Position numbers and translations under genes: made by a program
Shown here: in pieces, positions 5,666-56,697 of the stretch
Position numbering within the stretch: position 1 is the first letter of the stretch
Layout of the letters: the number at the start of each line of letters is the position of its first letter
NCBI RefSeq assembly: GCF_042466665.1
Contig: NZ_CP162102.1
Coordinates: 7,595,022 to 7,659,021, forward strand
Direction of reading: 5' to 3'
DNA length: 64,000 nucleotides
Origin: Peterkaempfera podocarpi
GTDB lineage: Bacteria > Actinomycetota > Actinomycetes > Streptomycetales > Streptomycetaceae
The notes under the pieces: generated by a model
Database searches by the model: none
Told to the model about the DNA's origin: nothing
Seen by the model: only the letters and a program-made list of their open reading frames with translations

Positions 5666-6685
5666 ATGAACACCCCCCTCACCCGCTCGAGGTTCCGCAT
5701 GCGCGGGCGCCTCAGGTGGATTCTCGCGCTGGTCGCGGCTGTGCTGCTGATCCCGGCCACCGCCCACGCGGACACCACGGTCACCTCGAACCAGACCGGC
5801 AGCAACAACGGGTACTTCTACTCGTTCTGGAGCCAGAACAGTGGTCAGGCCTCGATGACCATGGGTGCCGGCGGCCAGTACAGCACCACGTTCAACAATG
5901 TCGCCAACTTCGTTGCGGGTAAGGGCTGGAGCACCGGCAACCGCAACCCGGTGACCTACTCGGGCACCTGGAGCACCTCCGGCAACGCCTACCTCTCGCT
6001 GTACGGGTGGACCACCAACCCGCTGGTGGAGTACTACATCGTCGACAACTACGGCTCCTACAAGCCCACCGGCACCTACAAGGGCACGGTGACCTCCGAC
6101 GGCGGCACGTACGACATCTACGAGACCCAGCGGGTCAACCAGCCCTCGATCCAGGGCACGGCGACGTTCAACCAGTACTGGAGTGTGCGGCAGTCCAAGC
6201 GGACCGGCGGCACCATCACCGTCGGCAACCACTTCGACGCCTGGGCCAGCCACGGCATGAACCTGGGCTCGATGAACTACGAGATCCTGGCCACCGAGGG
6301 CTACCAGAGCAGCGGCAGCTCCAACATCACCGTCGGCTCCTCCAGCGGCGGCGGCACCACCGGCGGTACCACGGGTGGGACGACCGGGGGCACCACGGGC
6401 GGCACGACGGGCGGCGGCGGGAGTTGCACGGCGACGCTGTCGGCGGGCCAGTCCTGGAGTGACCGGTACAACCTGAATGTCGCGGTGACCGGTTCCAGCA
6501 CCTGGACGGTGACGATGAAGGTTCCGTCGCCGGAGAAGGTGATGTCGACCTGGAACATCAACGCCAGCTACCCCGACGCGCAGACCCTGGTGGCCAAGCC
6601 CAACGGCAGCGGCAACAACTGGGGCGCCACCATCCAGACCAACGGCAGCACCACCTGGCCGACGGTCACCTGCAGCCCCAGCTGA
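5666..6685 (+). CDS. xlnB: Secreted endo-1,4-beta-xylanase, GH11 catalytic domain + Gly/Thr linker + C-terminal CBM2 xylan-binding module
   Basis: GGAGGA RBS; signal peptide; GH11 hallmarks [25 protein letters not shown]; C-terminal [23 protein letters not shown]...TWPTVTCS is a CBM2. Very similar to S. lividans XlnB as I remember that sequence. Confidence 0.9.
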
Positions 6686-11173: not shown

Positions 11174-11727
11174 GACTCTCCCTGGCGTGGTGGGGTGGAG
11201 AGGGGTGGCGCTGGTCATCGGATACAAGAGAGCGCTCTCGGGGGGGAAGTGAAGCATTGGGGCCGAGTGGCGTCAATAGCCTGTAGACAATGGTGCTTCC
11301 GCAGCTGATGTGTGTTCAATTGATGAAGAGCTACCGAGCCGTCGCCGGCGGTGCCTCCGGCCGTGGACGCCGGATCGCAGCGGCTCGATCCGGCTCGGGG
11401 CGGGTGGTCCTCGGTGGGTCGCCGTGATGCCCCTGGAGCGTGGCGGTCCTCCCCGATCTCCCTCCATGTGCCGCATCCATGGCGATGCGATGGCATTGAC
11501 GGCCGGCGGCCGGGCCGTCGGCGGGTGCTTCGACCGCGCAGTGTCGACAAGTTGATGGAATCTCGCGGTCGCAACCCAGCGCTGACGCACCGTCATGCGC
11601 GATCACCGTCCCCGGCTGCTACGGGAGCGCTCACGAAAAATGGTTGCGTCTGCAGCGATAGCTTCGGTAGAAACTTACAAACCTTTGTGCCCCGTTCGGA
11701 TCCGCCGGAACGAGAGAGCTGACCTGC

Positions 11728-22408: not shown

Positions 22409-22946
22409 GTGGAGGTGCGGCCCGACCTCGCGTCCGCAGGGCGTCGGCCGAGCTGTGCGGGATGTCCTCGCCCGTTGCAGCGCATCGGGTGGGGGCGCTG
22501 AACTGTCGTGGCGTCAGATCCGTTCGCAGCGCGGCGATTCAGTGCTGTGCCCACCCTCGCCGGTGCGGGGAGCCGGGTGTGGAAGGTGCGGCGGTGTTCC
22601 TCCACGTTTCGGGCTGCCCTCGTACCCGAAGAAATTCCGGTGCTCCGGCCGCGTCCGGCTCACTACACTCACCACCGAAGGCACGCCGCCGCGACCCCGC
22701 AGAGAGTGTGCCCACCGACGAGTTGAGGGGAGCCGGGCCGTGCGTCACCGCATCGCCGTCGTGGTTTCCCGCCCCCGGTCCGAGGTGATCCTGGTGTCCT
22801 CGTCCGCCCGGTGCCGACTGCGCGGTCGGCTCCGGATGCCCGCGACGAACACCTGACCTCCGTCCGGGGGCCTCCGGCCCCCGTGACCCCTCGTCGTCCG
22901 GGAATCGCGCCGTCCTGTCCGGGATCTCCCCGAAAGGCCATGGGCC

Positions 22947-25010
22947 GTGCGTACCGATCTGCACCGTCATGCCGCAATCCAGCCGACCGCCATCCGCAAT
23001 CTGGGCATCCTCGCCCATGTCGACGCCGGTAAGACCACCGTCACCGAGCGGATCCTGTATCTGACCGGCGCCACCCACAAGCGGGGCGAGGTCCACGACG
23101 GGACGACGGTCACCGACTTCGACCCGCAGGAGCGCGACCGGGGAATCACCATCTTCGCCGCGGCGGTGAGCTGCCTGTGGGACGGGCACCGGCTCACCCT
23201 CATCGACACCCCCGGCCATGTCGACTTCTCCGCCGAGGTGGAGCGTTCGCTGCGGGTGCTCGACGGCGCGGTCGCGGTCTTCGACGCCGTCGCGGGTGTC
23301 GAGCCGCAGAGCGAGTCGGTGTGGCGGCAGGCGGACCGGCACGGTGTGCCGCGGATCGCCTTCGTCAACAAGATGGACCGGGCCGGCGCCGACCTCGACG
23401 CCGCGGCCGCCTCCATCCGGGAGCGGCTGGGCACCGTACCGCTGGTGGTCCAGCTGCCGATCGGCGTTGAGGACCGGTTCACCGGAGTGGTCGACCTGCT
23501 GCGCATGCGGGCACTGGTCTGGCCCGACGGGGTCGACGGGTACCAGGAGGGCCCGGTGCCGGAGTCCCTGCGGGACGAGGCGCACCGGCGCCGCCGACTG
23601 CTGGAGGAGACGGTGGCGGAGCTCCACCCGGCGGCGCTGGAGGAGTTCTGCGCCCGTGCGGAGGTCTCCGCACCGACGCTGGCCGCGGCACTCCGCGACC
23701 TGACACATACCGGGGAGGCGGTGGTGGTGCTGTGCGGGTCCGCGTACCGCAACCGCGGTGTCGAGCCGCTGCTGGACGCCGTGGTCTGCTGGTTGCCCTC
23801 GCCGCCGGAGGTGCCCGCGGTGCGCGGGGTGTTCGGGGGCGAGGTGCAGGAGCGCGCCGCCGATCCTGACGCGCCGTTCGCGGCGCTGGCCTTCAAGGTG
23901 AGCGCGGCCGCGACCGGGCGGCTGACCCATCTGCGGGTGTACTCGGGGACCGTACGCAGGGGAGATCTCGTCCTGGACGCGGGCTCGGGACGCAGCGAGC
24001 GGATCGGCCGGATCCTGCGGGTCCAGGCCGACCGGCACACCGATGTGGAGCTGGCGGTGGCCGGGGAGATCGTCGCGGTGCTCGGACTTCGGTCCGCGCG
24101 CGTCGGCGCCACCCTCTGCTCGCCCGCCGCACCCCTGCTCCTCGATCCGTCGGCCGTAGCCGATCCGGTGGTCTCGGTGGCCGTCGAGGCGCGCAGCGGC
24201 GGCGACACCGAGCGGCTGGCGGCGGCGCTGGCACGGCTGGCCGAGGAGGACCCGTCGCTGGTGCTGCGGACCGATCCGGAAACGGGCCAGACCCTGCTGT
24301 CGGGGCTGGGGGAACTGCATCTGGAGGTCGCGGTGGAGAAGATCCGCCGCACCCATGGGCTGGAGATCGGCGTCGGCCGGCCCCGGGTGGCCTACCGGGA
24401 GACGGTGGTCCGCGGGGTGTCAGGGCTGGTCTACCGGCACATCAAGCAGGAGGGAGGTGCCGGCCAGTTCGCCCATGTCGTCCTCGACGTCGGGCCGCTG
24501 GCGGCGGACGAGGCCGGGGGCTTCACGTTCCGGTCGGCCGTCACCGGCGGACGGGTGCCCCCGCCGTACATCCGCGCGGTCGAGGCGGGCTGCCGGGACG
24601 CCCTGGCCGAGGGGCCGCTCGGCGGCCACCCGGTGACGGGGCTCCGGGTCACCCTCACCGACGGGGGCACCCATCCCCAGGACTCCTCGGAGGCGGCCTT
24701 CCGTACGGCCGGCCGGTTCGCTCTCCGGGAGGCCCTGCGGGCCGCCACGATGGCGCTGCTCGAGCCGGTGGTCGAGGTCACGGCCACCATGCCCGAGGAC
24801 GCCGTCGGCGGGGTGCTCGGTGACCTGGTGGCTCGGCGCGGCCGGGTGACCGGGTCGGCCGTGCGGGGCGGCACCGCGGTGGTGACGGCGACCGTGCCAC
24901 TGGCCGAACTCTTCGGCTACGCCGGACGTCTGCGCAGCCGCACCCAGGGCAGGGGTTCCTTCACCACCCGGCCCGCCGGGTACGCCCCGTCGCCCGGCTC
25001 CGCCCGGTAG
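22947..25010 (+). CDS. Elongation factor G paralog (EF-G2-like translational GTPase)
   Basis: GTG start; G1-G4 motifs [21 protein letters not shown]; EF-G-like domains throughout. 687 aa, shorter than canonical FusA. Confidence 0.8.
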
Positions 25011-26948: not shown

Positions 26949-27986
26949 GTGAAATCCGACAGCCGGGATGAGCCGAGCATCTCCCCGATCGATCTCGGCG
27001 AGACCGACAACGCACTCGCCCACGCCCTCCACATCGACGGCCGCGCCCCCTTCGCCAAGATCGCCGACATCCTCGGCGTCTCCGACCAGACCGCGGCCCG
27101 CCGCTACGCACGGCTCCGCCGTACCGGCACGCTCGCCGTCCTGGGTCTGACCAACGCCCTGCGCAGCGGCGAGAACCACTGGCTGCTGCGGGTGCGCGCC
27201 GCTCCCGAGGCGGCGGTGCCCCTGGGTGAGGCGCTGGCCCGCAGGGACGACACCTCCTGGGTCTCCCTCGTCTCCGGAGGCACCGAGGTCTGCTGCACGG
27301 TACGCGAGCGGCCCGGGAGGCAGCACGAGCATCTGCTCCTGCACCAACTGCCCCGCACGCCCCAGGTCACCGATGTGCAGGCCTACGCCGTCCTCCATGT
27401 CTTCTTCGGCAACGACCAGTCGCCCCTGACCCGCTCCGGACCCCTCACCCCCGAGCAGGTCCAGACGCTGGAACCCGAGGACGCGCCCGACGGCTCGGAG
27501 CTCGGCCGCCCCCTCGACGACGACGAGCGACGCCTGCTCGCGGTCCTCGCCCGCGACGGCCGCGCACCGCTCACCGAACTCGGCCAGGCCACCGGCTGGT
27601 CCCTCAGCACCGTCCGGCGGCGCCTGTCCCATCTGCGGCGCACCGGGGTCCTGTACTACGACATCGACCTGGCTCCCCGCCTCCTCGACCGGGGGATGCA
27701 CGCCGGCCTCTGGCTCGACATCGACCCCGCCTCGCTGGAGCGGGCCGGCACCGCCATGGCCCAGCACCCCGAAGTCAGCTTCGCCGCCGCAACCACCGGC
27801 TCCACCAACCTCTACGCCTCACTCCACTGCGCAGACGCACCCTCGCTCTACCGCTACCTCACCACTCGGATCGCCACCATCCCCGGCATGCGCAGCTGCG
27901 CCACCGCCCCCGTGCACCGGACCCTCAAAGGCGCGGGCCCCATGGCCCCGCGCCCCCGCAGCCACAGCCACACCGAGCGAAACTGA
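26949..27986 (+). CDS. Lrp/AsnC-family transcriptional regulator with tandem duplicated AsnC-type HTH-RAM modules, divergent from the MFS gene
   Basis: GTG in frame; two repeats of DxxD/ERRLLxxLxxDGRAPxxELxxxxGxSxxTVRRRL. Confidence 0.65.
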   Translation: MKSDSRDEPSISPIDLGETDNALAHALHIDGRAPFAKIADILGVSDQTAARRYARLRRTGTLAVLGLTNALRSGENHWLLRVRAAPEAAVPLGEALARRDDTSWVSLVSGGTEVCCTVRERPGRQHEHLLLHQLPRTPQVTDVQAYAVLHVFFGNDQSPLTRSGPLTPEQVQTLEPEDAPDGSELGRPLDDDERRLLAVLARDGRAPLTELGQATGWSLSTVRRRLSHLRRTGVLYYDIDLAPRLLDRGMHAGLWLDIDPASLERAGTAMAQHPEVSFAAATTGSTNLYASLHCADAPSLYRYLTTRIATIPGMRSCATAPVHRTLKGAGPMAPRPRSHSHTERN

Positions 27987-28132
27987 GTCACCATCAGAAC
28001 CCTTCAGGCGCCCGGATCGCCGCGCAGTGAAGGGGTTGCCACTGCCCCCTGCGGGGCCTGCACAGGCGCACTGGGCTGCGCCGGTCATTCACCACCCCCG
28101 CGTTGTCAGAGGCCCTCGGTACCGTCCTCGGC

Positions 28133-29035
28133 ATGATCCCTCCGCGCCCTTCCCTGCTCCCCCTGCGGGACGACCCGACCGGTCGTCTCCTCGGCGCCGA
28201 TCTCCCTCCCGGGCGGCTGCTCGACGAGACCTTCGAAGGCCCCTGGCGCGAGCCGCTGGTGTGGCGCTCCGATGTGCCGGCCCTGCCCGGCCACTGGGCC
28301 CGTCTCCGGGCGGAGACCCGCCACACGGGTCTGTATCCCTTGCTCCTCGGCGGCACGCACACCTATGCGCGAGGGGTCCGCGAGCCGGAGCCCTGGCAGC
28401 CGGATCTGGGGCCCGACCTCGTGACCGACCCCGACGCCTTCGACGCCGAGCAGCTCATGCGCGAGTGGTGGCAGAAGTACGCCACCCCGGACGCGGACGC
28501 GGACGGGGGCGGGGGCGGGGGCGAGGGCGAGGGCGAGGGCGAGGGCGAGGACAGCGAGGCCGACGAGCGAGCGGAGATGCTGGCGCCCCACGACCGGACG
28601 TGGCCCGGCTTCGCCCCCGCCGGGACACTGCAGGCAGATCCCGAACACCGCGCCGCCGAAGCGGCCGACATCCTCCTCCGGAACAAGAACCTGCTGCTGC
28701 CCCGACTCGGCCTGGCGCCCGCCGGGCGCAGCTCCGACGTGCTCACGGCCATCGGCTGGACCGGCCCGCTGAACTACGACAACGACCCCGCACCCTTCAC
28801 CGCGGTCCTGCGCTCCTGGGAGGACCGCTTCGGCACCCGCCTGGTCGCGCTCACCCACGACGTCCTTTATCTGTCGGTCGCCGCCCCACCGCGCACCCTC
28901 GACCACGCCCTCGCTGTCGCTGCCGAGCACTTCGCCTTCTGCCCCGACAGCATCTGGCAGGGCAGCGACACCATCCACACCCACGCCGAGGAGAGCATCC
29001 TCGACCAGCCACTGTGGGCCTTCTGGTGGGACTGA
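28133..29035 (+). CDS. DUF4253 domain-containing protein
   Basis: C-terminal WEDRFGTRLVAL...LAVAAEHFAFCPDSIWQG...LWAFWWD; the 28103 track start is TTG, so ATG 28133 was chosen. Confidence 0.6.
   Translation: MIPPRPSLLPLRDDPTGRLLGADLPPGRLLDETFEGPWREPLVWRSDVPALPGHWARLRAETRHTGLYPLLLGGTHTYARGVREPEPWQPDLGPDLVTDPDAFDAEQLMREWWQKYATPDADADGGGGGGEGEGEGEGEDSEADERAEMLAPHDRTWPGFAPAGTLQADPEHRAAEAADILLRNKNLLLPRLGLAPAGRSSDVLTAIGWTGPLNYDNDPAPFTAVLRSWEDRFGTRLVALTHDVLYLSVAAPPRTLDHALAVAAEHFAFCPDSIWQGSDTIHTHAEESILDQPLWAFWWD
28489..28550. repeat. Hexanucleotide microsatellite (gacgcg)2-3(gggggc)3(gagggc)4 inside the DUF4253 gene, encoding DADADGGGGGGEGEGEGEGE
   Basis: Seen in sequence. Confidence 0.8.
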
Positions 29036-36051: not shown

Positions 36052-36236
36052 CGTGCCCACCTTTTCACTGTGCGGTGCCTGGTTCTCGCAGCCCGCAGCC
36101 CGCAGCCCGCGGCTCCGGCCTTCGGCCCTTAGTCCTCGGCCGTCGTGACGGTTCCGACAGGGCCTGCGTGGCGGCTGCGATATTGAGGTTATAGAGCACC
36201 GAATCAATAGGTCAAACAACCCGCTAGAATCTGGGC

Positions 36237-36848
36237 ATGGCCTCAAAGCGCGTGTACGTCTCCCCCTTGCGCGAGCAGGCCGCCGCCCAGACGCGCGCGC
36301 TGATCCTCCAGCGGGCCACCGAGCTGTTCGCCGACCGCGGCTACGGACTGGTGACCGTCGCGGACATCGCGTCGGCAGCCGGTGTCGCCGCCAAGACCGT
36401 CTTCGCCAGCGTGGGCAGCAAGGGCGACATCCTGGACCGGATCGTCGACGAGGGCGTCAGCGCGTCCGGCTACGACCAGGCCATGGAGCAGGTGCTCGCC
36501 CTGCGGACGCCCGAGGCGGTCCTCGAAGCCCTCGCCCGCGGCACTCGGCTGGGCAATCAGGGGCAGTTCAGCGTGCACGAGGCGATCCGCAAGGCCCTGC
36601 CCTGCCATGAGCAGGGCGAGGCGCTGTGGGAACGTGCGACCGCGGCCTACCGCGATGCGCTCCGCGCCGCCGCCCGCCACCTCCACACCCTGGCCCCGCC
36701 GCCCCGCTGCACGGTGGAGGAGACGGCGGACCTGCTGTGGTTCTGGTTCGGCCCCGGTGGCTGGCGCACCCTGGTCGTCGAGAACGGCTGGTCGTGGGAG
36801 CGGGCCGAGGAGGTTCTCCACCGGACCGCCGTCGCCACTCTCTGCTGA
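36237..36848 (+). CDS. TetR/AcrR family transcriptional regulator (divergent from the ester cyclase)
   Basis: N-terminal HTH TRALILQRATELFADRGYGLVTVADIASAAGVAAKTVF. Confidence 0.75.
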   Translation: MASKRVYVSPLREQAAAQTRALILQRATELFADRGYGLVTVADIASAAGVAAKTVFASVGSKGDILDRIVDEGVSASGYDQAMEQVLALRTPEAVLEALARGTRLGNQGQFSVHEAIRKALPCHEQGEALWERATAAYRDALRAAARHLHTLAPPPRCTVEETADLLWFWFGPGGWRTLVVENGWSWERAEEVLHRTAVATLC

Positions 36849-37345: not shown

Positions 37346-38376
37346 ATGGCTTCGCCACTGACTGCTCTCGGAGTCGGCATCCCGGTCGTGGCCGCGCCGA
37401 TGGCCGGCGGCCCCACCACTCCGGCGCTGGTCACCGCCGCAGCCCGGGCGGACGGCCTCGGATTCCTCGCGGGCGGGTACCGGACCGCCGACAACCTGGC
37501 GGAGCAGATCGCCCGGGTCCGCTCGGACGGTGTCGTCTTCGGGGTCAACCTGTTCGCGCCCAACCCCGTCCCGGTCGACGCGGCGGCCTTCAGCCGGTAC
37601 GCCCGCGCCATCGCGCCCGAGGCCGAGCCCTACGGCATCGATCTCTCCACGGTCGGCATCGTCCAGGAGGACGACCGCTGGTCGGACAAGATCGACCTGC
37701 TGCTGTCCGACCCCGTCCCGGTGGTCAGCTTCACCTTCGCCGTCCCCGGCGCATCCGTGATCGCCGCGCTGCGCGCCGCCGGAACCCTCGTGGTCCAGAC
37801 GGTCACCTCCGCCGCCGAGGCCCGCCAGGCCGCCGAAGCCGGCGTCGACGCGCTCGCCGTCCAGGCGACAGCGGCAGGGGGGCACTCCGGAACCTTCACC
37901 CCCCAGCAGACTCCGCCGGCGCTCCCGCTGGCCCACCTGCTCGGGCAGGTGCGGCAGGCGGTCTCCTGCCGCTGATCGCCGCCGGTGGCCTGGCCACCCC
38001 GGATGCCGTCACCGAGGCACTGTGGAACGGAGCCGACGCGGTCATGGTCGGCACCGTCCTGCTGCGCGCGGACGAGGCCGGCACCTCAGACCCGTACCGG
38101 GCCGCCCTGGCGGACTCCGAACGCCGGCACACCATGGTCACCCGGGCGTTCACCGGCAGGCCCGCTCGGGCCCTGCGCAACACCTTCACCGACCGCTACA
38201 GCGGCATCGCCCCGGCCGGGTATCCCGCGCTGCACCACTTGACCAGCCCCCTGCGCAGGGCGGCAGTCGCCGCCGGTGATCCCGCACGCATCAACCTGTG
38301 GGCCGGGACCGGGCACCGCCATGCCACGGAGGAGCCCGCGGCCCAGATCCTGCGACGGCTCGCCTCCCGGCTCTGA
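37346..38376 (+). pseudogene. Nitronate monooxygenase (NMO / 2-nitropropane dioxygenase) family gene interrupted by an apparent 1-nt deletion in a C run at about 37960
   Basis: N-terminal part ends ...VRQAVSCR-stop; the +1 frame continues LPLIAAGGLATPDAV...TRAFTGRPARALRN. Restoring ccc in gtctcc(c)tgccg gives a continuous NMO. Confidence 0.7.
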
Positions 38377-38560
38377 GTGGCGGCACCGGATTCCCGACCA
38401 CCCGGCGGCAGTGTCGCGACACGCCGTCCGACCGGGCACACCGCCGTGCGGATGCCCCGGCCCCCGCGCACGACGCCCCGCACCACCGGCTCCGAGGAGC
38501 GGGAAGTGCGGGGCGCGGAGTGCCGGATGCCCGGCTGCGGTGTGCCTGCGCGGGGGTTTG

Positions 38561-38932
38561 TCAGCCGAGCTTGGACACCTGGTAGTGGCCGATGTACCAC
38601 TGCCCGGCGACCCGCCTGAGCAGGATGCTGAGCGTGACCTTGATCGTCGGCCGGTCGGTGAACGAGAAGTCGACCCCGAAATACCCGAACAGGGCATCCT
38701 CGCTGATCTGCCGTGTCTCCAGCACCCGGTACTCCGCCACCATCCCGAGCGGCTGGGAGTCGTAGTAGTCCGCGACCCCCTGACGGCCGACGCTGTACGG
38801 ATGGAGCCCCTGGAAGATCGCGTCCTCGGTGAAGTACGAGGCGACCTTCTGCGGCTCATGCGCATCGACCGCGGACTTCCAGCGGTCCATGACGCCACGC
38901 AGGATCGTCTCGGCTGCTGCTGTGCTGTTCAT
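38561..38932 (-). CDS. Nuclear transport factor 2 (SnoaL/SgcJ-like) family protein
   Basis: 123 aa, ...VAGQWYIGHYQVS C-terminus. Confidence 0.55.
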   Translation of the reverse strand: MNSTAAAETILRGVMDRWKSAVDAHEPQKVASYFTEDAIFQGLHPYSVGRQGVADYYDSQPLGMVAEYRVLETRQISEDALFGYFGVDFSFTDRPTIKVTLSILLRRVAGQWYIGHYQVSKLG

Positions 38933-39109
38933 CAGTTTCTGCTCTCAGGATGGGGTCCGCGCTGGGCGGCGCCCGGTGGTGAAGGTTCCGCCGCCGGTGC
39001 AACGGCTCGGCTGTCGGGGTGGCGGCGGCGATCGGGTGGCGGACGGGACACGGCTCCCGGCGGGGCGTCATGGCCGGTCGACGGGGAGCCGTGGGCACTG
39101 AGCGCCCGA

Positions 39110-39412
39110 TCAGGCGGCGCCGCCGGACCGGCCCGGGTCGTTGGGGTGCGACTGCAGGGCGGTGACCACCGCGGTCATCCAGGGCCACAGCGGCAGGGTC
39201 CCGAGGACGTCGGCCCGCAGCTCCGCTTCGTCCTCCGCGCGCCACAGGCCGATGCTGCGCAGCTCGCCGACCGGGCGCCACAGCCGGACCAGGTGATCGG
39301 TGGCGGCGAGCTCCTTCGCGCGGACGGCCTCGGCGGCGCGACGGCGGTCGACCTCGGCGGCGTCGGTGCCCTCGGGGACGGTGGTGGTGAGCTCGACCAG
39401 GAACTCCTTCAT
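39110..39412 (-). CDS. Muconolactone delta-isomerase-like family small protein
   Basis: GGAGGAAGAG RBS; MKEFLVELTTTVPEGT...LWRPVGELRSIGLWRAEDEAEL...LPLWPWMTAVVTAL. Confidence 0.6.
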   Translation of the reverse strand: MKEFLVELTTTVPEGTDAAEVDRRRAAEAVRAKELAATDHLVRLWRPVGELRSIGLWRAEDEAELRADVLGTLPLWPWMTAVVTALQSHPNDPGRSGGAA

Positions 39413-39884
39413 GGTCTCTTCCTCTCTCATTGTCTGTGGGGGCTTGTCTGTGGGGTGCCTGACGGGTGGTCGGGAGCCGCCCCGGGCGGGGTGCGGCGCG
39501 ACGATTCCGAGGCATCGGACGATCGGCGTTGTTCTCCACTGGGGACATGATCGGACCGTCGCAGCACGACGGCGGGGCATTGCCGCGCAGGGTGCCCGAT
39601 GGGCCTGAGCGCGGTGCGTAAGGGCTGGTGGCGTGCCGGTGTCGGGCGCGCAGCCGGCCGGTGGGGGCCGCCCCGGTGGGCGGAGAGCGGAGCGGAGCCG
39701 CTGTCAGATCACGGACCCCCGGGCTGCGGACGGCTGCGGGCCAGGCCGGGGAGCGGCTGGGCCGACGGTGCCCCGCAGGAGCGTGGGGAACGCGGCGGGC
39801 AGCGGTACGACTGCGATGGTGAGCCTGACAGGGGTGGTCACAGGGGCTCTCCACTTCATGCGGAGCTGGGGCGGCACTAGGTAG

Positions 39885-39945
39885 CCGACCGGTCGAGTTA
39901 AAAGTAGACGACCGGTCGACAAAAGTCAAAGCTGCAGAAGTGCAC
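39885..39945. promoter_or_regulatory. Minus-strand sigma70-like promoter (TTGACT-17-TACTTT) with a TCGACCGGTCGA palindrome in the spacer and a second CGACCGGTCG palindrome just downstream; TetR-type operator/promoter
   Basis: Read on the reverse strand of 39885-39945. Confidence 0.5.
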
Positions 39946-40211
39946 CCAAGATGCCGAGCCGCTGCCGGACACGGCAGGCGAGGCCAGGGCCTGTCCGCCG
40001 GGTCGAGCTGACCGCTGGGCACTGCTGCCGTCCGTGACGCGCGAGGCGGGGAGTGCGCTGGGGAGCGGATGCGGGGTCCTTGCAGCCCTGAATCCAGGGC
40101 CGTGGCCGGCTGCAACGCGGCGGGTGACCACTCGGCCTGCGTGCTCCCGGCCACCCGTCGGCGAGGCCGGGCATCCGCCGGCTGTCGGCGTGGTGCGTGT
40201 GGTGGTGGGGG

Positions 40212-40835
40212 TCAGGGGGTGGGGGCTGGTGTCTGCTGGGGGGTGTGTGCGCCGAGGAGGGCGAGGCAGTTGGCCCAGAGGGTGTCGAGGCGTTGGGCGT
40301 TGTTGTAGAGCTTGGCGAAGAGGACTTGGCCTTCGAGTTGGGCGACGATGGAGCGGGCGGCTTCGCGGGTGTCGGTGAGGGTGATGTCGCCGTGTTCGCG
40401 GGCTTGGGTGATGACGGTGTCGACCATGTCGACCTGTGCTTGGAAGATCTGTTGCAGGCGGGTGCGGATGGCTTCGGTCTGGTTGGACATCTCCAGGGTG
40501 AGGTTGCCGAAGAGGCAGCCGGAGACGGTGCCGCAGGTCTGCTGGCCGGCTTGTTGGGTGGCCTGGGTGGCTTCGAAGAGTTGCCGTAGCCGGTGGAGGG
40601 GGTCGGTGTCGGCGGTGAGGATGTGGGTCCAGGCGGTGCGCTGCTGGGTCCAGTGTTCGTCGATGACGGCGAGGGCGAGGGCTTCTTTGGAGTCGTAGAA
40701 GTAGTAGAAGCTGCCCTTGGGTACGCCGGCGGCCTTGCAGATCTCGGCCACGCCGAGCGCGGAGTAGCCGCGCAGTTCGATGAGCGACTGCGCGGCGGTG
40801 AGGATCTTCTGCCCGGCGTCACTGGTGCGTCCCAT
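40212..40835 (-). CDS. TetR/AcrR family transcriptional regulator with atypical codon usage
   Basis: HTH ILTAAQSLIELRGYSALGVAEICKAAGVPKGSFYYFY; codons strongly C-ending with frequent CAA/GAA, making the + strand G/T-rich. Confidence 0.75.
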   Translation of the reverse strand: MGRTSDAGQKILTAAQSLIELRGYSALGVAEICKAAGVPKGSFYYFYDSKEALALAVIDEHWTQQRTAWTHILTADTDPLHRLRQLFEATQATQQAGQQTCGTVSGCLFGNLTLEMSNQTEAIRTRLQQIFQAQVDMVDTVITQAREHGDITLTDTREAARSIVAQLEGQVLFAKLYNNAQRLDTLWANCLALLGAHTPQQTPAPTP

Positions 40836-40999
40836 GATTCCCCTCCTCGGCCGGGTGCCTGCTCGGTGTCTCCTCGTGCAGGCACGGGGGCTGCGCCTTC
40901 CGGTCCGGGGTGGTCCGGGGGCAGAACCTGCGGATCACCCGGTGCGGCACGGCTGCCGACGGGCCGATGGGCGGCCCGGCCAGGCGCATCGTTCGAGCC

Positions 41000-41040
41000 G
41001 GGCAACTATACTAGACGACCGGTCTATTTCTGCCAAGCCC
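41000..41040. promoter_or_regulatory. Minus-strand promoter (TTGGCA-17-TAGTAT) with an AGACCGGTCT palindrome in the spacer, upstream of the TetR gene
   Basis: Same architecture and operator core (GACCGGTC) as the 39885-39945 promoter. Confidence 0.5.
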
Positions 41041-41089
41041 CGGCATCCTCGATGCGCTGCGCCTCGGCCTCGAAAGGCGCCGGGGCGAA

Positions 41090-42016
41090 CTACTGTCCGG
41101 CCGGTTCGGGGTCGGGTGACCAGGCGCCCGGACCGTGAAGGACGGGAAGGCCGCCGATCCCGTCGCTCAGTGCCTCGACGGCGGCCAGGACGGCCGGGCG
41201 GACTTCGCCGCGACGCCGGACCAGGGACCATGTCCAGTAGATCCGAGGAGCCACCACGGGGCATGCGACCAGATCCGGCGGCAGCGGATTGCTCACTCCC
41301 TTCGGGGAGTTGATGAGCGGCCGCCGGCTGCGGCGGACATGGTCGAAGAAGGCGGGCCCGGTGATCCCGCCGTCGGAGATGTGCTCGATGCGGACGCCGG
41401 TGTCACGGGCCAGCTGTTCGGCGTAGAGGTTCCAGGACGCCCAGTACGTGCTGTCGTCGTCGACCAGGACGGCCGTGTCCTCCGCGCGTACGTCGCCCCC
41501 GCAGTCCCTGGTGGCGACCGCGTGCAGCCGGTCCGCGCCTATCAGTCGGGCGTCGAGGTCGAGCCGGTCCAGGTCCCGGGCGGGCACCCAGCACGCCGCA
41601 AGGTCGAGGCTCCCGTCGGCGACGCGGGCGGCCTGTGCGTGGGAGGGGGCGATCCAGGGGTCGATGTGGACCTGGGCCACCGCGGAGGTGAGCGCGGTCA
41701 GGTTGGGGGGCAGCCAGTTGACATATCCGAACCGCACGGGTTCGGAGCCGGAGATCTGTGCGGCGCGGCGCCGCAGCTCCTCCGCCTGTTCCAGCAGCGT
41801 GCGGGCCTGCGGCAGCAGAGCGGAGCCGGCCGGGGTGAGCGCCACCGAGCGGCGGTCACGATCGAAGAGTCGCACCCCGAGGTCGCGCTCCAGGGATTTG
41901 ATCTGCTGCGACAGGGACGGCCCGGCGATCAGCAGTCGCTCGGCGGCGCGGCCGAAGTTCAGTTCCTCGGCGACCGCGACGAAGTACCGCAGTTGGCGCA
42001 GTTCCACGAGCGCCAT
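41090..42016 (-). CDS. LysR family transcriptional regulator
   Basis: Internal start MALVELRQLRYFVAVAEELNFGRAAERLLIAGPSLSQQIKSLE (LysR HTH). Confidence 0.75.
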   Translation of the reverse strand: MALVELRQLRYFVAVAEELNFGRAAERLLIAGPSLSQQIKSLERDLGVRLFDRDRRSVALTPAGSALLPQARTLLEQAEELRRRAAQISGSEPVRFGYVNWLPPNLTALTSAVAQVHIDPWIAPSHAQAARVADGSLDLAACWVPARDLDRLDLDARLIGADRLHAVATRDCGGDVRAEDTAVLVDDDSTYWASWNLYAEQLARDTGVRIEHISDGGITGPAFFDHVRRSRRPLINSPKGVSNPLPPDLVACPVVAPRIYWTWSLVRRRGEVRPAVLAAVEALSDGIGGLPVLHGPGAWSPDPEPAGQ

Positions 42017-42430
42017 GCTACGTGCGTGGGGAGGCGTACCCCGGCTGCGGGGAGGCTTCCTCCTGGCGGCGTCGGCCCGCGCGAACCGCCGGTGCCCAGG
42101 CCGAACGCCTTCGTCGGGCACCTTGCGGGAGGCGGGGCCTTCCCATGGCGCAGGGCCTCGGCCGGGGGCGCCTGCGGCGACGTATCGGAGTGTTCCGTCG
42201 CGGAGCTCTGCGCCTGTTGCGGTGCTTCTCAGGCCGTGGTGCTTCTCCGGCCGGGCTCGTGCGGATCGCTGCCGCCACTGCTGCGCCCCGAGGGCATCGC
42301 CGATGCCGCGGCCTGCGCCGTCACCCGGGACCGTCGGGTGGCCGTGAACGAGATCCCTGTGCGCGCCGCCGAGCAGACCCGGTGGCAGGGGGATGGTGAG
42401 GTCCGCCCGCGCCTCGGGTGCGCGAATCCC

Positions 42431-42490
42431 GTCACCGCTTTGACAGGTGACTGACGCCATGCCACTGTAGTCACCACTTGGACAGGTGAC
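42431..42490. promoter_or_regulatory. Two copies of the 21-bp motif GTCACC-N9-GGTGAC (gtcaccgctTTGACAggtgac; gtcaccacttggacaggtgac) upstream of ohr
   Basis: Read in sequence; a third copy is at 48240-48260. Confidence 0.55.
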
Positions 42491-42537
42491 GCCCTGGATG
42501 GTGAGTGCATCCAGGGGAGAATCGGAAAGGCATGACC

Positions 42538-42957
42538 ATGGCTGAAGCGCACTACACCGCCCTTGTCACCGCGACCGGCGAGGGCCGCAACGGCGGCCGG
42601 GCCGAGTCCAGCGACGGTGTGCTCGACCTGACCCTGGCCATCCCGAAGGAGCTGGGAGGAAACGGCGGGGCCACCAACCCCGAGCAGCTCCTCGCGGCGG
42701 GATGGGCCTCCTGTTTCCTGGGCGCGGTCAGGATCACCGCCGCGAAGAGGAAGCTGGCGCTGCGGAATCCGGCCGTCGCAGCCGAGGTCACCCTGCACCA
42801 CACCGCAGGCGACTTCAGCCTCAGCGCCGTCCTCCGGCTCACGGTCGAAGGGGTGGACCAGATCACCGCTGAGGAGCTCGGTGCCGACGCCCACCAGGTC
42901 TGCCCCTACTCCAAGGCGCTCGCCATCCCGGTGACCATCGAGGCGACCGTCGTCTGA
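42538..42957 (+). CDS. ohr: Organic hydroperoxide resistance protein, Ohr/OsmC family peroxiredoxin
   Basis: MAEAHYTALVTATGEGRNGGRAESSDGVLDLTLAIP...C-x...C. Confidence 0.75.
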   Translation: MAEAHYTALVTATGEGRNGGRAESSDGVLDLTLAIPKELGGNGGATNPEQLLAAGWASCFLGAVRITAAKRKLALRNPAVAAEVTLHHTAGDFSLSAVLRLTVEGVDQITAEELGADAHQVCPYSKALAIPVTIEATVV

Positions 42958-43105
42958 AGGCCGGCCGTCGGGGCCCGGTTGACGGATGACCGGCCGCCGC
43001 GGCCGAAGCCGCGGCGGCCACCCGCGCCGTCCTCGTCCTCGACGGGCAGCAGGAGTCACCACCGTTGGGAAACTCGCTGGCGAACCCGGGTTCTCCCGGA
43101 TCAGC

Positions 43106-43675
43106 ATGGGGCGCATGAATGACCAACCCGAGCGATGGAGCAGGGCAACCGTCTACCCCGACATGTGGGTCGACCCGGCCGACGACCCACGCAACAGCGA
43201 CGAGAGCAGCCCGGACGGCGAACTCGCGACGCTCCAGGACTTCCTGACGGGCTATCGCATGACCCTCCGGATGAAGTGCGACGGCCTGGATGCGGAGCAG
43301 CTGGCCCGCCGGTCGGTTCCGCCGTCGACGATGTCGCTGCTCGGCCTGGTCCGGCACCTCGCCGAGGTGGAACGGGACTGGCGGAACTGGATCAGCGACG
43401 GTGACCCGCTGCCGAAGCTGTACGGCGAGAGGGACGCGGACTTCGACGGAGCCGTCGCCGAGCCGGCCGAGGTCGACGCTGCGTACTCCGCTCTGGAGCG
43501 TGAGCAGGCCGCGACCGACGCCGCGCTGGCCGAGTTCCCGGACCTGGGCGAGCGTCCGGGGAAGGGTGAGACCTCGGTTCGGGAGCTGATGGTGCACAGG
43601 ATCGAGGAGTACGCCCGCCACAGCGGGCACGCCGACCTGTTGCGCGAGCGCATCGACGGACGGGTGGGCCAGTGA
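43106..43675 (+). CDS. DinB/DUF664 (mycothiol-dependent-isomerase-like four-helix bundle) family protein
   Basis: LQDFLTGYRMTLRMKCDGLDAEQLARRSVPPSTMSLLGLVRHLAEVERDW. Confidence 0.5.
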   Translation: MGRMNDQPERWSRATVYPDMWVDPADDPRNSDESSPDGELATLQDFLTGYRMTLRMKCDGLDAEQLARRSVPPSTMSLLGLVRHLAEVERDWRNWISDGDPLPKLYGERDADFDGAVAEPAEVDAAYSALEREQAATDAALAEFPDLGERPGKGETSVRELMVHRIEEYARHSGHADLLRERIDGRVGQ

Positions 43676-44356: not shown

Positions 44357-45223
44357 ATGAGCAGTCAGGGGCAGAAGGTCGCCGTCATCACCGGTGCCTC
44401 GCAGGGGATCGGCGCGGGCCTGGTCGCCGCCTACCGCAGGCTCGGCTATGCGGTCGTTGCCACATCGCGCGGCATCGCGCCGTCCCCGGATCCGCACATC
44501 CTCACCGTTCAGGGCGACATCGCCGACCCGGACACCGCCGAGCGCGTCATCGCGGCCGGTGCCGAGCGGTTCGGCCGTATCGACACCCTGGTCAACAATG
44601 CCGGGATCTTCATCGCCAAGCCCTTCACCGACTACACCAGGGCCGACTACGACCTGGTGCTCGGTGTGAACCTGAGCGGGTTCTTCCGGGTCACCCAGCT
44701 CGCTGTGGAGCGGATGCTCGAGCAGGGCGGCGGTCACGTGGTGCAGATAACGACCAGCCTGGCCGACCACGCCGACTCCAGGGTGACCTCCGTCCTCGCC
44801 TCGCTGACCAAGGGCGGACTGCAGTCGGCCACGAAGGCGCTGGCCATCGAGTACGCCGCGCGGGGCATCCGCAGCAACGCGGTCGCTCTTGGCACCGTCG
44901 CGACCCCGATGCACCCCGAGGGCGAGGCCGCAGCCCTCGCCGCACTGCACCCGATGGGCCGGCTGGGAGAGGTCGACGATGTCGTCGGCGCGGTGGTCTA
45001 CCTGGAGCAGGCCCCGTTCGTCACCGGCGTCGTCCTCCCCGTGGACGGGGGAAGAGCGCCGGCCGGTGAGCCCGCTCGCGGCTCGGCGGTGCCGATGGCC
45101 TCCGGCCGAGCGGCCGGTCCTCCCGCTGCCGCTGCCGTGCACGGTCCCGGAGGGTGCGGTCGCCGGAGTTGTTGCACCGGGGGCAGCGCCTGGAGCTGCT
45201 CCTTGATCCGTCAAGGGGGCTAG
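44357..45223 (+). CDS. SDR family oxidoreductase; the 3' end may carry a 1-nt indel in a G run near 45045 that would otherwise end the protein at ...VDGGKSAGR
   Basis: GAGGAGG RBS; VAVITGASQGIGAGL, NNAG, Y..K motifs; unusually long low-complexity tail after VDGG. Confidence 0.7.
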   Translation: MSSQGQKVAVITGASQGIGAGLVAAYRRLGYAVVATSRGIAPSPDPHILTVQGDIADPDTAERVIAAGAERFGRIDTLVNNAGIFIAKPFTDYTRADYDLVLGVNLSGFFRVTQLAVERMLEQGGGHVVQITTSLADHADSRVTSVLASLTKGGLQSATKALAIEYAARGIRSNAVALGTVATPMHPEGEAAALAALHPMGRLGEVDDVVGAVVYLEQAPFVTGVVLPVDGGRAPAGEPARGSAVPMASGRAAGPPAAAAVHGPGGCGRRSCCTGGSAWSCSLIRQGG

Positions 45224-45232
45224 AGTGGTGCG

Positions 45233-46055: not shown

Positions 46056-46117
46056 TCCTTGACGCGTCAAGGAGTCTGAGGTCTACTGGCGTGGAAGTAC
46101 TTGCTTGACGCGGCAAG
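46056..46117. promoter_or_regulatory. Perfect 16-bp palindrome CCTTGACGCGTCAAGG plus a degenerate second copy GCTTGACGCGGCAAGC 30 bp downstream, between the MarR gene and the FMN reductase-VOC operon
   Basis: Read in sequence. Confidence 0.5.
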
Positions 46118-54832: not shown

Positions 54833-55056
54833 CGGGGGCCGTTCATGATCACAAGCAACGCCGGAGTCTGCGCGGCCGTTGCAGCCGTCGCCAGGCCTTC
54901 CGCACCTGCCCCTGCGGGACTTCCGCGCCAGTACGGCGCACACATCCGTCCACCCCGGCCGCAGCCGCTCCGTCCCCGCCCCGCACCTGACCAGCCCACC
55001 TGGTGGACCGACGCCGGCTCCGGCAGGTGGCCGGACCGCATCTGCGAGAGGAACCC

Positions 55057-56697
55057 ATGACCACCGAGTCGACCCTGCCCTCGTCCGCCGGCAGCAGCAC
55101 CGACGGCGCAACCATCACCAACCCCGTCCTCCCCGGCTTCCACCCCGACCCGTCGATCCTGCGGGTGGGCCAGGAGTACTACCTCGCCACCTCGACCTTC
55201 GAGTGGTACCCCGGCGTCACGCTGCACCACTCCCGCGACCTGGTCCACTGGCAGTCCCTGGGCGGCGTCCTCGACGAGCGCCGACTCCTCGACCTGAGCG
55301 GAGTCCCCGACTCCGGTGGCATCTGGGCGCCCTGCCTCTCCTACGCCCACGGCCGCTTCCATCTGGTCTTCACCCGCGTCGACAACTACCGCGGCGAGTG
55401 GTGGGACGCTCAGAACTACGTCACCACCGCCACCGACATCACCGGCCCCTGGTCCGACCCGGTCCCCGCCCATGCCCGTGGATTCGACGCCTCGCTGCAC
55501 CATGACCCCGACGGCACCTGCTGGTTCCTGTCCGTCAACGGGGACTGGCGCCCCGGCCGCAACTTCTTCGGCGGTATCCAGGCGCAGCAGTGGGACTGCG
55601 CCAAGGGCAGCCTCGTCGGCGACGTCCACCTGATCTACTCCGGCACGGACGCCGGGGTCACCGAAGGCCCCCACATCTACCAGCGGGACGGCTGGTACTA
55701 CCTCATGACCGCCGAGGGCGGCACCGTCTGGAACCACCAGGTCACCGTCGCCCGCTCCCGCAACCTCCTCGGGCCGTACGAGTCCGACCCGGCGGGTCCC
55801 ACCCTCACCTCGCGGAACAACCCCGAACTGCCCCTGCAGAAGGCCGGCCACGCCAGCCTGGTCGAGACCCCCGCGGGCGAGTGGTACCTGGCCCACCTCG
55901 TCGGGCGCCCCCACACCACCCGTGGACGGTGCATCATGGGCCGCGAGACTGCGATCCAGAAGATCACCTGGACCGGCGACGGATGGCCCCGCGTCGCCGA
56001 CGCCGTACCGCACCTGACCGTGCCCGCCCCCGCCCTGCCCGCCGCGCCCTTCGCGCCGGAACCCGAGCGCGACGACTTCGACGGCCCCCGCCTCGGGCTC
56101 CGCTGGGCCACCCTCCGTCGCCCGGCGGGCGACGACTGGATCGACCTCACGCAGCCGGGCCGTCTGCGGATCCGCGGTGGGCAGTCGCCCCGGGGCAAGC
56201 GCACCCCCAGCCTGGTCGCCCGCCGCGTCACCGCCCGTCACTGCTCCCTGGAGACCACCGTCTCCTTCACGCCCCGCAGCCCGCACCAGTTCGCCGGTAT
56301 CACCGCCTACTACGACACCCACAACTGGCACTACGCCTACATCACCGGCGACGACACATCCCGGACGCTTCACGTCGAGACGTCCGACGACGGCCGCCGG
56401 AGCGAACACCCGCTGGCGGTCACCGACCTGCCCGCAACCGGCGAGATCCACCTGCGCGTCACCGTCGACGGCGGCCGGGCCCGTTTCGGTTACGCCCTTG
56501 CCGCAGACGACTGGCGAGATCTGGACGCCGTCTGCGACGCCACGATCCTGTCCGACGAGTACGCAGGCGAGAACCCGCTCGAAGGCCGGCCGGCCGGCCC
56601 CGCCTTCACCGGTGCCTTCCTGGGGCTGTGGGTTCACGACCTGGGCGCGGACGGTGGTTACGCCGACTTCCACCATGCGACCTACCGGACCCACTGA
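55057..56697 (+). CDS. GH43 glycoside hydrolase (beta-xylosidase / alpha-L-arabinofuranosidase) with C-terminal beta-sandwich domain
   Basis: GAGAGGAA RBS; NPVLPGFHPDPSILRVGQEYYLATSTFEWYPGV and DxxxDG...E motifs of GH43. Confidence 0.85.
   Translation: MTTESTLPSSAGSSTDGATITNPVLPGFHPDPSILRVGQEYYLATSTFEWYPGVTLHHSRDLVHWQSLGGVLDERRLLDLSGVPDSGGIWAPCLSYAHGRFHLVFTRVDNYRGEWWDAQNYVTTATDITGPWSDPVPAHARGFDASLHHDPDGTCWFLSVNGDWRPGRNFFGGIQAQQWDCAKGSLVGDVHLIYSGTDAGVTEGPHIYQRDGWYYLMTAEGGTVWNHQVTVARSRNLLGPYESDPAGPTLTSRNNPELPLQKAGHASLVETPAGEWYLAHLVGRPHTTRGRCIMGRETAIQKITWTGDGWPRVADAVPHLTVPAPALPAAPFAPEPERDDFDGPRLGLRWATLRRPAGDDWIDLTQPGRLRIRGGQSPRGKRTPSLVARRVTARHCSLETTVSFTPRSPHQFAGITAYYDTHNWHYAYITGDDTSRTLHVETSDDGRRSEHPLAVTDLPATGEIHLRVTVDGGRARFGYALAADDWRDLDAVCDATILSDEYAGENPLEGRPAGPAFTGAFLGLWVHDLGADGGYADFHHATYRTH

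Follow-up and report, generated by a model that had tools for sequence, protein, structure and literature searches.

What gives a repressor gene of an actinomycete a codon usage that looks foreign, and what does the repressor control? Both questions are raised by a 64,000-nucleotide (nt) stretch of the genome of Peterkaempfera podocarpi (contig NZ_CP162102.1, positions 7,595,022 to 7,659,021; 71.7% G+C; hereafter the window, in which positions are counted from its first letter). On its minus strand, at 40212..40835, lies a gene for a NemR-like TetR/AcrR repressor of 207 amino acids (aa) with TetR_N and TetR_C_13 domains. A prediction made earlier from the sequence itself (the original prediction) had suggested that this gene was horizontally acquired and had predicted an autoregulated repressor that also gates a downstream transcription unit. 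The answer that we consider probable is that TetR is a thiol-based repressor of the NemR type, sensing electrophiles and oxidants, that it belongs to a strongly conserved actinomycete family and sits in a rearranged locus, and that its codon anomaly arose in place by a lineage-specific, strand-asymmetric loss of guanines.

Codon usage and strand skew of the tetR gene

The codon counts are as had been described, with C-ending codons accompanied by frequent CAA and GAA. Third codon positions comprise 147 C, 34 G, 25 A, and a single T, and the synonymous choices include CTC 19 to CTG 3, GCC 23 to GCG 2, ACC 22 to ACG 0, ATC 10, CAA 9 to CAG 12, and GAA 8 to GAG 2. Codon statistics had been proposed as a check of the original prediction. 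In a chi-square test of synonymous usage against the pooled genes of the window, tetR reached z = 10, a value attained in 0 of 300 simulations, and the next gene stood at z = 5, making tetR the strongest outlier among the 33 window genes. This test replaced a log-likelihood resembling the codon adaptation index (CAI), which is insensitive to such a bias and left the gene unflagged (z = 0.1) because the gain from the C-ending codons cancels the loss from CAA and GAA. The codon bias is real and extreme.

The G/T skew announced for the + strand was found as well. The GC skew of this strand over tetR is the most extreme of the 64 kb (+0.45 in 300-nt windows; mean 0.003, standard deviation 0.11), and the best-scoring strand-asymmetric segment lies at 40187..40710, where the + strand counts 247 G, 97 C, 62 A, and 118 T (GC skew 0.44, keto content 0.70). 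The + strand is G/T-rich in this tract, and the coding strand is depleted of G and T. The tract starts ~25 nt past the stop codon of tetR and fades toward codons 34–42: within the gene, the coding-strand skew deepens from −0.08 (first 90 nt) to −0.57 (last 90 nt), and just downstream it is back at −0.10. The C-rich run extends ~25 nt beyond the stop codon, which is directly followed by CCCCCACCACCACACGCACCACGCC, and ends there abruptly.

For comparison, we used 80 TetR-orthologous loci from several actinomycete families, among them those of P. griseoplana (L001), Streptomyces achmelvichensis (L034), and Streptomyces albiflavescens (L060). Across the 644 putative genes of the window and these loci, the fraction of G at third codon positions (G3) is lowest in the tetR gene of the window, and its coding-strand skew is the second most negative.

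Divergence of the tetR gene from its orthologs

The codon anomaly is absent from all 80 orthologs. Their fractions of C (C3) and G at third positions range from 0.39 to 0.56 and from 0.31 to 0.48, against 0.71 and 0.16 in the window copy, and they contain at most 4 CAA and 7 GAA codons. A search covering 5.8 billion proteins returned as the closest homolog the protein of P. griseoplana, a member of the same genus (84% aa identity). Over 600 nt, the window copy differs from this gene at 90 positions, 72 of which are changes of G to C or A in the window copy (binomial P for at least 72 of 90, 5e-21). Read from P. griseoplana to the window, the 90 differences break down into 40 G>C, 32 G>A, 7 A>C, 5 C>A, 4 T>C, and one each of T>G and C>G, whereas six ordinary ortholog pairs show 21–39 C>G and 15–25 G>C each. 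With the G-loss differences set aside, the two genes are 96.8% identical in codons 35–200 and 98.0% identical in codons 1–34.

The same direction appears when the window copy is set against a leave-one-out consensus of the orthologs over codons 35–200. There, 56 of 148 conserved G positions are changed, compared to 1 of 156 C, 3 of 70 A, and 1 of 62 T positions (5 of 288 for all non-G; Fisher p = 2e-24). The losses fall on 17, 9, and 36 sites at codon positions 1, 2, and 3, and T is never the replacement. Four-fold sites show 24 G>C against 2 G>A, whereas at two-fold sites ~40% of the G became A. The first 34 codons show a weaker bias of the same kind (6 of 8 differences), and no clear pattern was seen in the bases neighboring the lost G. 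Taken together, the alignments suggest that C or A took the place of ~40% of the coding-strand guanines of tetR, both at synonymous sites and at non-synonymous ones where the change was tolerated, and that the codon anomaly is a lineage-specific change of one strand and not a foreign dialect.

The protein changed along with its gene. Twenty of the 29 aa differences in codons 35–200 are explained by G loss alone, and the composition of the protein is shifted toward Thr, Gln, and His (z = 4.5, 3.6, and 3.3) and away from Glu, Val, and Arg (z = −4.9, −2.9, and −2.1). The window copy nevertheless departs from the family at only 3 of the 124 columns conserved at 90% or more, which is also the median of the orthologs; the TetR protein therefore appears to be under normal purifying selection.

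These comparisons bear directly on horizontal acquisition, in which tetR, or its 3′ 85%, would have come from a donor with a C-ending, CAA- and GAA-rich dialect and would have recombined within the conserved region coding for the helix-turn-helix. The codon usage is indeed an extreme outlier, as an atypical-composition test would require (z = 10, lowest G3), but a distant donor should differ from the P. griseoplana gene at C, A, and T sites too, in the manner of ordinary ortholog pairs, and the differences are nearly all G>C or G>A. The divergence outside G is only 2–3%, which makes a distant donor unlikely, and the nearest of 5.8 billion proteins is congeneric. The bias does weaken inside the gene near codon 34; the first 34 codons nonetheless share it in weaker form, so that a gradient is seen and no junction. 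The family itself would lend itself to transfer, as it is unusually conserved across orders (74–84% aa identity), lies on large linear plasmids of Streptomyces, Embleya, and Nonomuraea (ordinary members only, 73–77% identity), and is present in two copies in some genomes. The locus is also a mosaic whose flanks resemble nothing elsewhere. However, Pfam scans of 39 open reading frames (ORFs) of the window revealed no integrase, transposase, or reverse transcriptase (no tRNA scan was made), and no terminal or IS-like repeats were found around the gene. Neither another TetR copy nor a segmental repeat was found inside the window, a phage collection held no match to TetR, and a 20-mer diagnostic of the G-depleted version, scanned against metagenomes, gave five chance matches, none of them a TetR. 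Given a congeneric relative from which it differs mainly by G loss, and neither mobility genes nor insertion scars, we consider horizontal acquisition an unlikely cause of the codon bias, and this part of the original prediction did not hold.

The positions of the losses also bear on translational selection, by which tetR, highly expressed after gaining a leader with a ribosome-binding site, would have been optimized to use the C-ending codons that high-GC actinomycetes favor. Such codons are the most frequent kind in the genes of the window, tetR is normal on the CAI-like index, T-ending codons have nearly gone (1 of 207), and two other window genes, at 9380..11257 and 55003..56697, are rich in C3 and presumably well expressed. 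The codons CAA and GAA are rare, though (0.07 and 0.16 of their families in the window), and they rose in tetR to 9 of 21 and 8 of 10. In addition, G was lost at codon positions 1 and 2, with the shift in protein composition described above, and the bias runs ~25 nt into non-coding DNA. For these three reasons pure translational selection is unlikely, and we hold this explanation to be very improbable.

Second copy and other guanine-poor genes

A second copy of TetR is encoded in the same genome (WP_377272897 / XHM94791), 83 accession numbers away from the window copy. In a protein comparison, the two are identical at 206 of 207 residues, and the sole difference lies at residue 132, which is E in the second copy, Q in the window copy, and E or D in the family consensus; it amounts to a further G>C change of the window copy, here at the first position of a codon. 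The muconolactone-isomerase (MIase)-like and SnoaL-like genes next to tetR in the window have no such paralogs.

The depletion of G is not a one-off. The most extreme coding-strand skew of the 644 putative genes belongs to an acyl-CoA oxidase/dehydrogenase-like gene of S. achmelvichensis (L034, 6300..8603, minus strand), whose codon choices follow the habit of tetR, with CTC 51 to CTG 13, GCC 56 to GCG 6, ACC 73 to ACG 9, and GAA 10 to GAG 9. It has the same 5′-to-3′ gradient, with a skew down to about −0.56 to −0.59, and at the C-terminus of its product Thr, His, Gln, and Pro abound where homologs have Glu, Gly, Val, Asp, and Arg. One relative of this gene is 99% identical, and all other homologs are at 55–63%. 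Inside the window, the second most skewed tract (27576..27986, plus strand, skew ~−0.35) is the 3′ end of a two-domain Lrp/AsnC gene (26961..27986); it is weaker and of the same sign, and the closest homolog, at 62% identity, is too distant for a clean directional test.

Two further regions drew attention by their composition. In S. albiflavescens, the OYE/NemA-like (315–1403) and WrbA-like (5311–5985) genes have C-rich, G-poor coding strands (skew −0.37 and −0.28) with low A at third positions, which looks more like an ordinary preference for C-ending codons. In the window, ~350 nt at 5250–5600, upstream of a GH11-type xylanase gene (5666..6685), are G/T-rich and A-poor (keto content 0.71, AT skew −0.68); this region is apparently non-coding, and the product of an ORF spanning it on the minus strand would contain much Thr, Pro, His, and Gln.

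Possible causes of the guanine loss

The cause of the loss that we consider most likely is a local strand-asymmetric mutational pressure. It would have been sustained, directed against G on the coding strand (that is, against C on the + strand), and filtered by selection, and a candidate source is repeated single-strand exposure of the + strand. Enrichment of G and T is the direction expected for a strand that is often single-stranded. A single hypermutation event is unlikely, as essential G positions are intact, and a uniform mutational spectrum does not fit, as four-fold and two-fold sites differ in their C:A replacement.

Some observations count against this account. The replacement ratios at four-fold (24 to 2) and two-fold (~40% A) sites do not fit a simple mutational model, which needs some selection on the replacement base in addition. 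The version based on antisense transcription is weakened because we see no + strand promoter with a TAnnnT −10 on the downstream side of tetR. Finally, the 80 orthologs appear to be autoregulated in the same way and have no such bias.

A different explanation would place the selection on the nucleic acid itself, favoring a G-poor, C-rich transcript as a long Rho-loading, rut-like region that ends tetR before the next promoter, as an unstructured mRNA, or by avoidance of a G-specific nuclease or of GC-rich motifs. C-rich, G-poor sequence such as the CCCCCACCACCACACGCACCACGCC that follows the stop codon resembles a Rho-loading site, no intrinsic terminator was found between tetR and the downstream promoter, and the replacement base depends on synonymy, as selection on base content would have it. 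Rho loading, however, needs ribosome-free RNA and not 500 nt of coding sequence; one lineage would have had to fix 60–70 substitutions, each with a minute effect, of which 80 orthologs with the same function show none; and the same pattern occurs in the unrelated acyl-CoA oxidase-like gene, which has a hairpin terminator of its own. We regard this explanation as distinctly unlikely.

Mutational pressure thus remains the preferred cause, although the pattern is explained by no known process: foreign origin, codon optimization, and replication skew all fail to account for the G loss, and our literature searches on strand-biased clustered mutation in actinomycetes returned nothing describing it. 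A broader hypothesis, which we put forward tentatively and hold to be somewhat doubtful, is that Streptomycetaceae have a local process, tied to transcription units, that removes guanines from one strand. It would convert coding-strand G to C or A over 0.5–2 kb, more strongly toward the 3′ end and stopping at the end of the gene, and both TetR copies and the acyl-CoA oxidase-like gene of S. achmelvichensis would be among its products. Such a process would reshape proteins (Glu, Val, Arg, and Ala to Gln, Ile, His, and Thr) with function kept, possibly through single-strand exposure combined with error-prone repair or through 3′-primed, cDNA-mediated conversion. To our knowledge, neither mechanism has been described in bacteria.

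If the loss in place is correct, a functional gene has shed ~40% of its coding-strand guanines in one direction relative to a near-identical congeneric gene, and this compositional part of the results would outweigh the regulatory part. It also carries a warning, since a "foreign-looking" codon bias can arise in place and indices of the CAI type can miss it.

Family and putative sensor residues of the TetR protein

The TetR protein of the window matches WP_377272985 / XHM94874, a protein of Peterkaempfera sp. SMS 1(5)a (P. podocarpi, Streptomycetaceae), with 100% identity. Its place in the TetR/AcrR family is given by an N-terminal TetR_N helix-turn-helix (PF00440, 53.7 bits, cut-off 24) followed by a C-terminal TetR_C_13 domain (PF16925, 57.1 bits, cut-off 27); the related Pfam domain TetR_C_13_2, "LmrA/YxaF-like", also matches at 6e-9. 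The best match in PDB is E. coli NemR (4yze, E 4.8e-19), and YxaF (1sgm) is also among the matches. No curated model specific to NemR was passed, and the top NCBIfam model, AcuR (1.4e-28), scored 99.6 bits, below its equivalog cut-off of 247.

In a BLASTP alignment with native NemR (28% identity), C107 of TetR aligns with NemR Cys106 and K175 with NemR Lys175. These two residues, together with C33, C101, and C190, are invariant among 18 aligned homologs. In NemR, Cys106 and Lys175 form a HOCl-responsive switch, and quinones, glyoxals, and N-ethylmaleimide are sensed as well (PMC7464077). NemR acts on an inverted repeat to repress its own operon; electrophiles and HOCl release the protein by way of its cysteines (PMC7464077, PMC13178969).

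The family is unusually conserved, with 74–84% aa identity across Streptomyces, Nonomuraea, Micromonospora, Saccharopolyspora, Actinomadura, Embleya, and Sphaerisporangium, and a genome scan counted 412 relatives in one-genome-per-species assemblies.

Putative operators and the regulon

The original prediction had placed two minus-strand promoters with palindromes in their 17-nt spacers on either side of tetR, and both hexamer pairs are present. The promoter of tetR, P1 (41008..41036), reads TTGGCA (41036..41031), 17 nt, TAGTAT (41013..41008); it was found by a consensus scan and has the same layout as the target promoters of the regulon described below. The second promoter, P2 (39901..39929), reads TTGACT (39929..39924), 17 nt, TACTTT (39906..39901) and is of the target type. 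It was read directly, the consensus scan having missed it: its −10 matches TATAAT at 3 of 6 positions, yet it fits the actinomycete form TAnnnT.

Three putative operators with the core GACCGGTC lie in these promoters. O1 (41011..41026, core at 41017..41024; repeat family D1) is in the spacer of P1, O2a (39904..39919, core at 39910..39917) is in the spacer of P2, and O2b (39881..39896, core at 39887..39894) stands directly after the −10 of P2, 23 nt from O2a. A further site that would be expected 21 nt downstream of O1 has decayed to GCCCGGCT. The palindromes are thus where they had been announced, but the versions first given for them, AGACCGGTCT and TCGACCGGTCGA, each deviate by one terminal base; perfect symmetry is seen in the 8-mer GACCGGTC for P1 and in the 10-mer CGACCGGTCG for both P2 sites. 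The core occurs seven times in the window, three of them at this locus (39887, 39910, and 41017), and the longer motif that these three sites have in common, TAGNCGACCGGTC, is matched six times when one mismatch is allowed, against 0.53 expected, a number reached in 0 of 100 shuffles. A fourth near-consensus operator-like site, GAGACGACCGGTC, was seen at 28177–28189 (minus strand) within the 5′ part of a DUF4253 gene (28103..29035).

The core follows the TetR family across the orthologous loci. An exact GACCGGTC is found within 60 nt upstream of the TetR start codon in 66 of the 80 loci, and in 76 when one mismatch is allowed; it sits at −21 and/or −44 in these 66–76 loci, and two or more sites are present in 47. 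Its density upstream of the start codon is 16.5 per kb, compared to 0.32 per kb overall. The canonical upstream layout is TAGCC-GACCGGTC-TAGTAAAA..GTAGTC-GA(C/G)CGGTC-GTA(T/C)ACT-N6-ATG, with two operators 23 nt apart and a −10 only ~6 nt before the start codon, so that the orthologs most likely make leaderless mRNAs. With O1 in the spacer of P1 and the same motif before the orthologs, an inverted repeat overlaps the repressor's own promoter, as judged from sequence.

Target promoters have a design of their own: TTGAC(N)-N6-GACCGGTC-GTC-TA(C/G)nTT followed by a second GACCGGTC-G(G/T)CTAG, with a spacing between tandem operators that is typically 21–27 nt in the orthologous loci. In several genera, such tandem-pair promoters precede an SDR gene ("MSxQGQKVAVITGASQGIG...") and a WrbA-like flavodoxin-type gene ("ATPVKLSIVYYSSTG"). 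P2 aligns with the SDR and WrbA-like promoters of Streptomyces, Nonomuraea, Micromonospora, and Microbispora and follows the target design base for base, as in the SDR promoter of Nonomuraea turkmeniaca, and P1 corresponds to the first half of the design. Genes for SDR (55), SnoaL-like (44), MIase-like (38), and WrbA-like (11) proteins are found within 4 kb of the TetR ortholog in the 80 loci, and the SDR family is the commonest target preceded by operators.

The predicted control of tetR by its own product, and that of the downstream unit by the same protein, through GACCGGTC palindromes is therefore well supported, given the conserved core upstream of the orthologs, the tandem pairs, and the NemR-like character of the protein. 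This agrees with the original prediction, in that motif, spacer position, and tandem arrangement are all conserved in the comparison of the 80 loci. TetR dimers would bind sites of 16–18 bp around the core. At P1, one bound site would fill the spacer between −35 and −10 and switch off tetR, and at P2, two sites 23 nt apart would cover the spacer and the region of the transcription start, blocking a unit composed of the truncated WrbA-like, MIase-like, and SnoaL-like genes. Modification of Cys107, possibly together with Lys175 as in NemR, would then release the repressor under quinone, electrophile, or oxidant stress.

Some points temper this picture. The pairing of repressor and operator is deduced from their co-conservation. 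P1, with its single operator and its distance of 189 nt from the start codon, is unlike the promoter of every ortholog. The present function of P2 is also uncertain, since it drives a truncated gene and the MIase-like gene is reached through ~480 nt of unrecognized sequence. The palindromes could alternatively be operators of another regulator, the TetR protein encoded at 36237..36848 or the LysR protein at 41090..42121, with the NemR-like protein acting elsewhere. Unrelated TetR proteins such as TTHB023 can recognize sites that contain GACCGGTC (PMC7022988). The motif, though, accompanies this TetR family in 76 of the 80 loci whichever regulators are nearby, always lies at a fixed distance from the TetR start codon, and resembles the box upstream of E. 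coli nemR, and we give very little credence to another regulator.

Literature searches on the motif, on "NemR box", and on quinone-sensing TetR proteins of Streptomyces found no description of this TetR family. The regulatory part thus concerns a widespread actinomycete stress regulon, uncharacterized as far as we found in the literature, that would bring together a NemR-like repressor with its well-marked operator, a promoter design in which two operators are conserved, and recurrent reductase-type genes. Its inducers and targets are directly testable, and the promoter–repressor pair could act as an inducible switch.

Arrangement of the locus

The locus is a rearranged version of the canonical cluster. 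Between P1 and the start codon, tetR has a leader of ~166 nt (40836..41001, minus strand; fold z-score −2.0) with a GGAGG ribosome-binding site, which is peculiar to the window copy, the orthologs being most likely leaderless; the gene has probably gained a target-type promoter along with this leader in place of the leaderless promoter of its orthologs. A spacer of ~280 nt (39930..40211) separates the stop codon of tetR from P2. Apart from a 50-nt 5′ end of a wrbA gene, the leader, this spacer, and the ~400 nt after P2 have no homology in the 80 loci. An Rfam E-value scan of 38000..43000 found no RNA family, and since no intrinsic terminator was found between tetR and P2, read-through from P1 past tetR is possible.

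P2 reads into a 51-aa ORF (39704..39859, minus strand), whose conservation had been suggested as a check. Within it, 39815..39859 (MKWRAPVTTPVRL...) alone can be recognized, as the 5′ end of a gene for a WrbA-like NAD(P)H:quinone oxidoreductase. Its first 15 codons match the N-terminus of the WrbA-like protein of S. albiflavescens (MKWRAPVATPVKLAVVYYSSTG) at 11 of 15 residues (tblastn E 0.002), and 50 nt are 86% identical to the gene for that protein; when the WrbA-like protein was compared to the window, the match was limited to these 15 codons. A longer gapped DNA alignment of the region to the S. albiflavescens gene was weak and unconvincing, and tblastx matches were compositional noise. 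The ORF falls short of a full-length (~200 aa) flavodoxin-like WrbA and has no Pfam match, and GenBank annotates no gene between XHM94873 and XHM94874. With only the 5′ end of the regulon's WrbA-like gene left, the rest absent, and no annotation, the ORF is a truncated remnant and not a gene of its own; the WrbA-like gene has been cut after ~15 codons.

Farther downstream of P2, behind a leader of ~480 nt, lies the gene of the muconolactone-isomerase family (39110..39412, minus strand, 100 aa; Pfam MIase, 98 bits), which starts at 39412 and not at 39415 as first given. It scores 49.7 against the enzyme equivalog TIGR03221 (cut-off 130.6) and is a member of the family only. The predicted unit ends with a SnoaL/YybH-like gene (38561..38932, minus strand, 123 aa).

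On the other side of tetR, at 44357..45223 on the plus strand, stands an SDR gene of the regulon type, with 81% nt identity to the SDR gene of P. griseoplana. No operator was found upstream of it, even with one mismatch allowed. The protein has 288 aa compared to ~237 aa in the orthologs, and its additional C-terminal tail is of low complexity and extends up to the next gene, which may reflect a lost stop codon or a frameshift.

Other features of the window

Genes related to redox and electrophile stress cluster around tetR at 36000–49400. They encode a second TetR protein, a nitronate monooxygenase, a LysR protein beside Ohr, a DinB/mycothiol S-transferase, an SDR, a MarR protein, an FMN reductase, a glyoxalase-fold protein, and a DsbA-like protein.

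Two plus-strand ORFs elsewhere in the window are also of note. An uninterrupted 607-aa ORF at 31085–32908 joins a DyP-type peroxidase (residues 8–295) to the encapsulin shell protein Linocin_M18 (339–589); it would represent cargo and shell fused instead of being encoded by two genes. At 23166–25010, a paralog of an EF-G-like GTPase, at least 614 aa as called, contains EF-G domains II–V. Its match begins at profile position 63, the chosen start cutting off the beginning of the GTPase domain, and the true start is probably further upstream in the ORF 22887..25010.

Comparison with known systems

The guanine loss has partial likenesses among known mutators. As with cytosine deaminases (AID/APOBEC kataegis) or transcription-associated asymmetry, the changes read on the + strand turn C into T or G but never into A, and they are confined to one strand over ~0.5 kb, leaving it G/T-rich. 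Those processes, however, give scattered hits of one event or weak skews of ~0.05, whereas here ~40% of the targets are replaced and the protein is intact. In addition, no neighbor-base context is visible in the tract, and its C:A ratios at four-fold and two-fold sites disagree. No bacterial equivalent of strand-coordinated clustered mutation was found in our literature searches. Diversity-generating retroelements likewise produce directional, base-specific substitutions that are limited to the 3′ portion of a gene and end sharply on its 3′ side. They are adenine-specific, however, and act on a variable repeat from a nearby template repeat with an adjacent reverse transcriptase. The changes in tetR are at G, with no second copy in the window and no reverse transcriptase in the 64 kb, and tetR was rejected as a target of such an element. 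Moreover, its changes are common to both genomic copies, and conserved residues are kept.

Among regulators, TetR has C-terminal domain families in common with LmrA/YxaF of Bacillus subtilis and AcuR of Rhodobacter. These proteins differ in their ligands (flavonoids, acrylate), and the AcuR score is far below the cut-off. The boxes of LmrA/YxaF also contain a palindrome of the TAGA..GGTCTA type; we know of no cysteine switch in LmrA or YxaF.

The likeness is broader with NemR (YdhM) of the E. coli nemRA-gloA operon, also a TetR-family repressor with a TetR_C_13-type C-terminal domain. Both residues of its switch are conserved in TetR (PMC7464077), whereas NemR Cys21 and Cys116 are unmatched and the TetR family has its own invariant C33, C101, and C190. 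NemR controls its own expression through an inverted repeat overlapping the nemR promoter, beside a TACACT −10 (PMC13178969), a layout related to the one described here; the E. coli K-12 nemR promoter, read directly, has TAGACCGACTGGTCTA followed by TACACT. The operators themselves differ, being TAnnnGACCGGTCnnnTA-like for TetR and TAGACC-N4-GGTCTA for NemR, and, unlike in the NemR system, target promoters of the TetR regulon carry two operators and the orthologs are most likely leaderless. The targets of NemR are reductases that detoxify electrophiles and quinones, which is a likeness to the TetR regulon, but in the latter SDR, WrbA-like, MIase-like, and SnoaL-like genes take the place of nemA and gloA. 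TetR would thus be a well-defined addition to the NemR-like class, with a regulatory side that appears ordinary.

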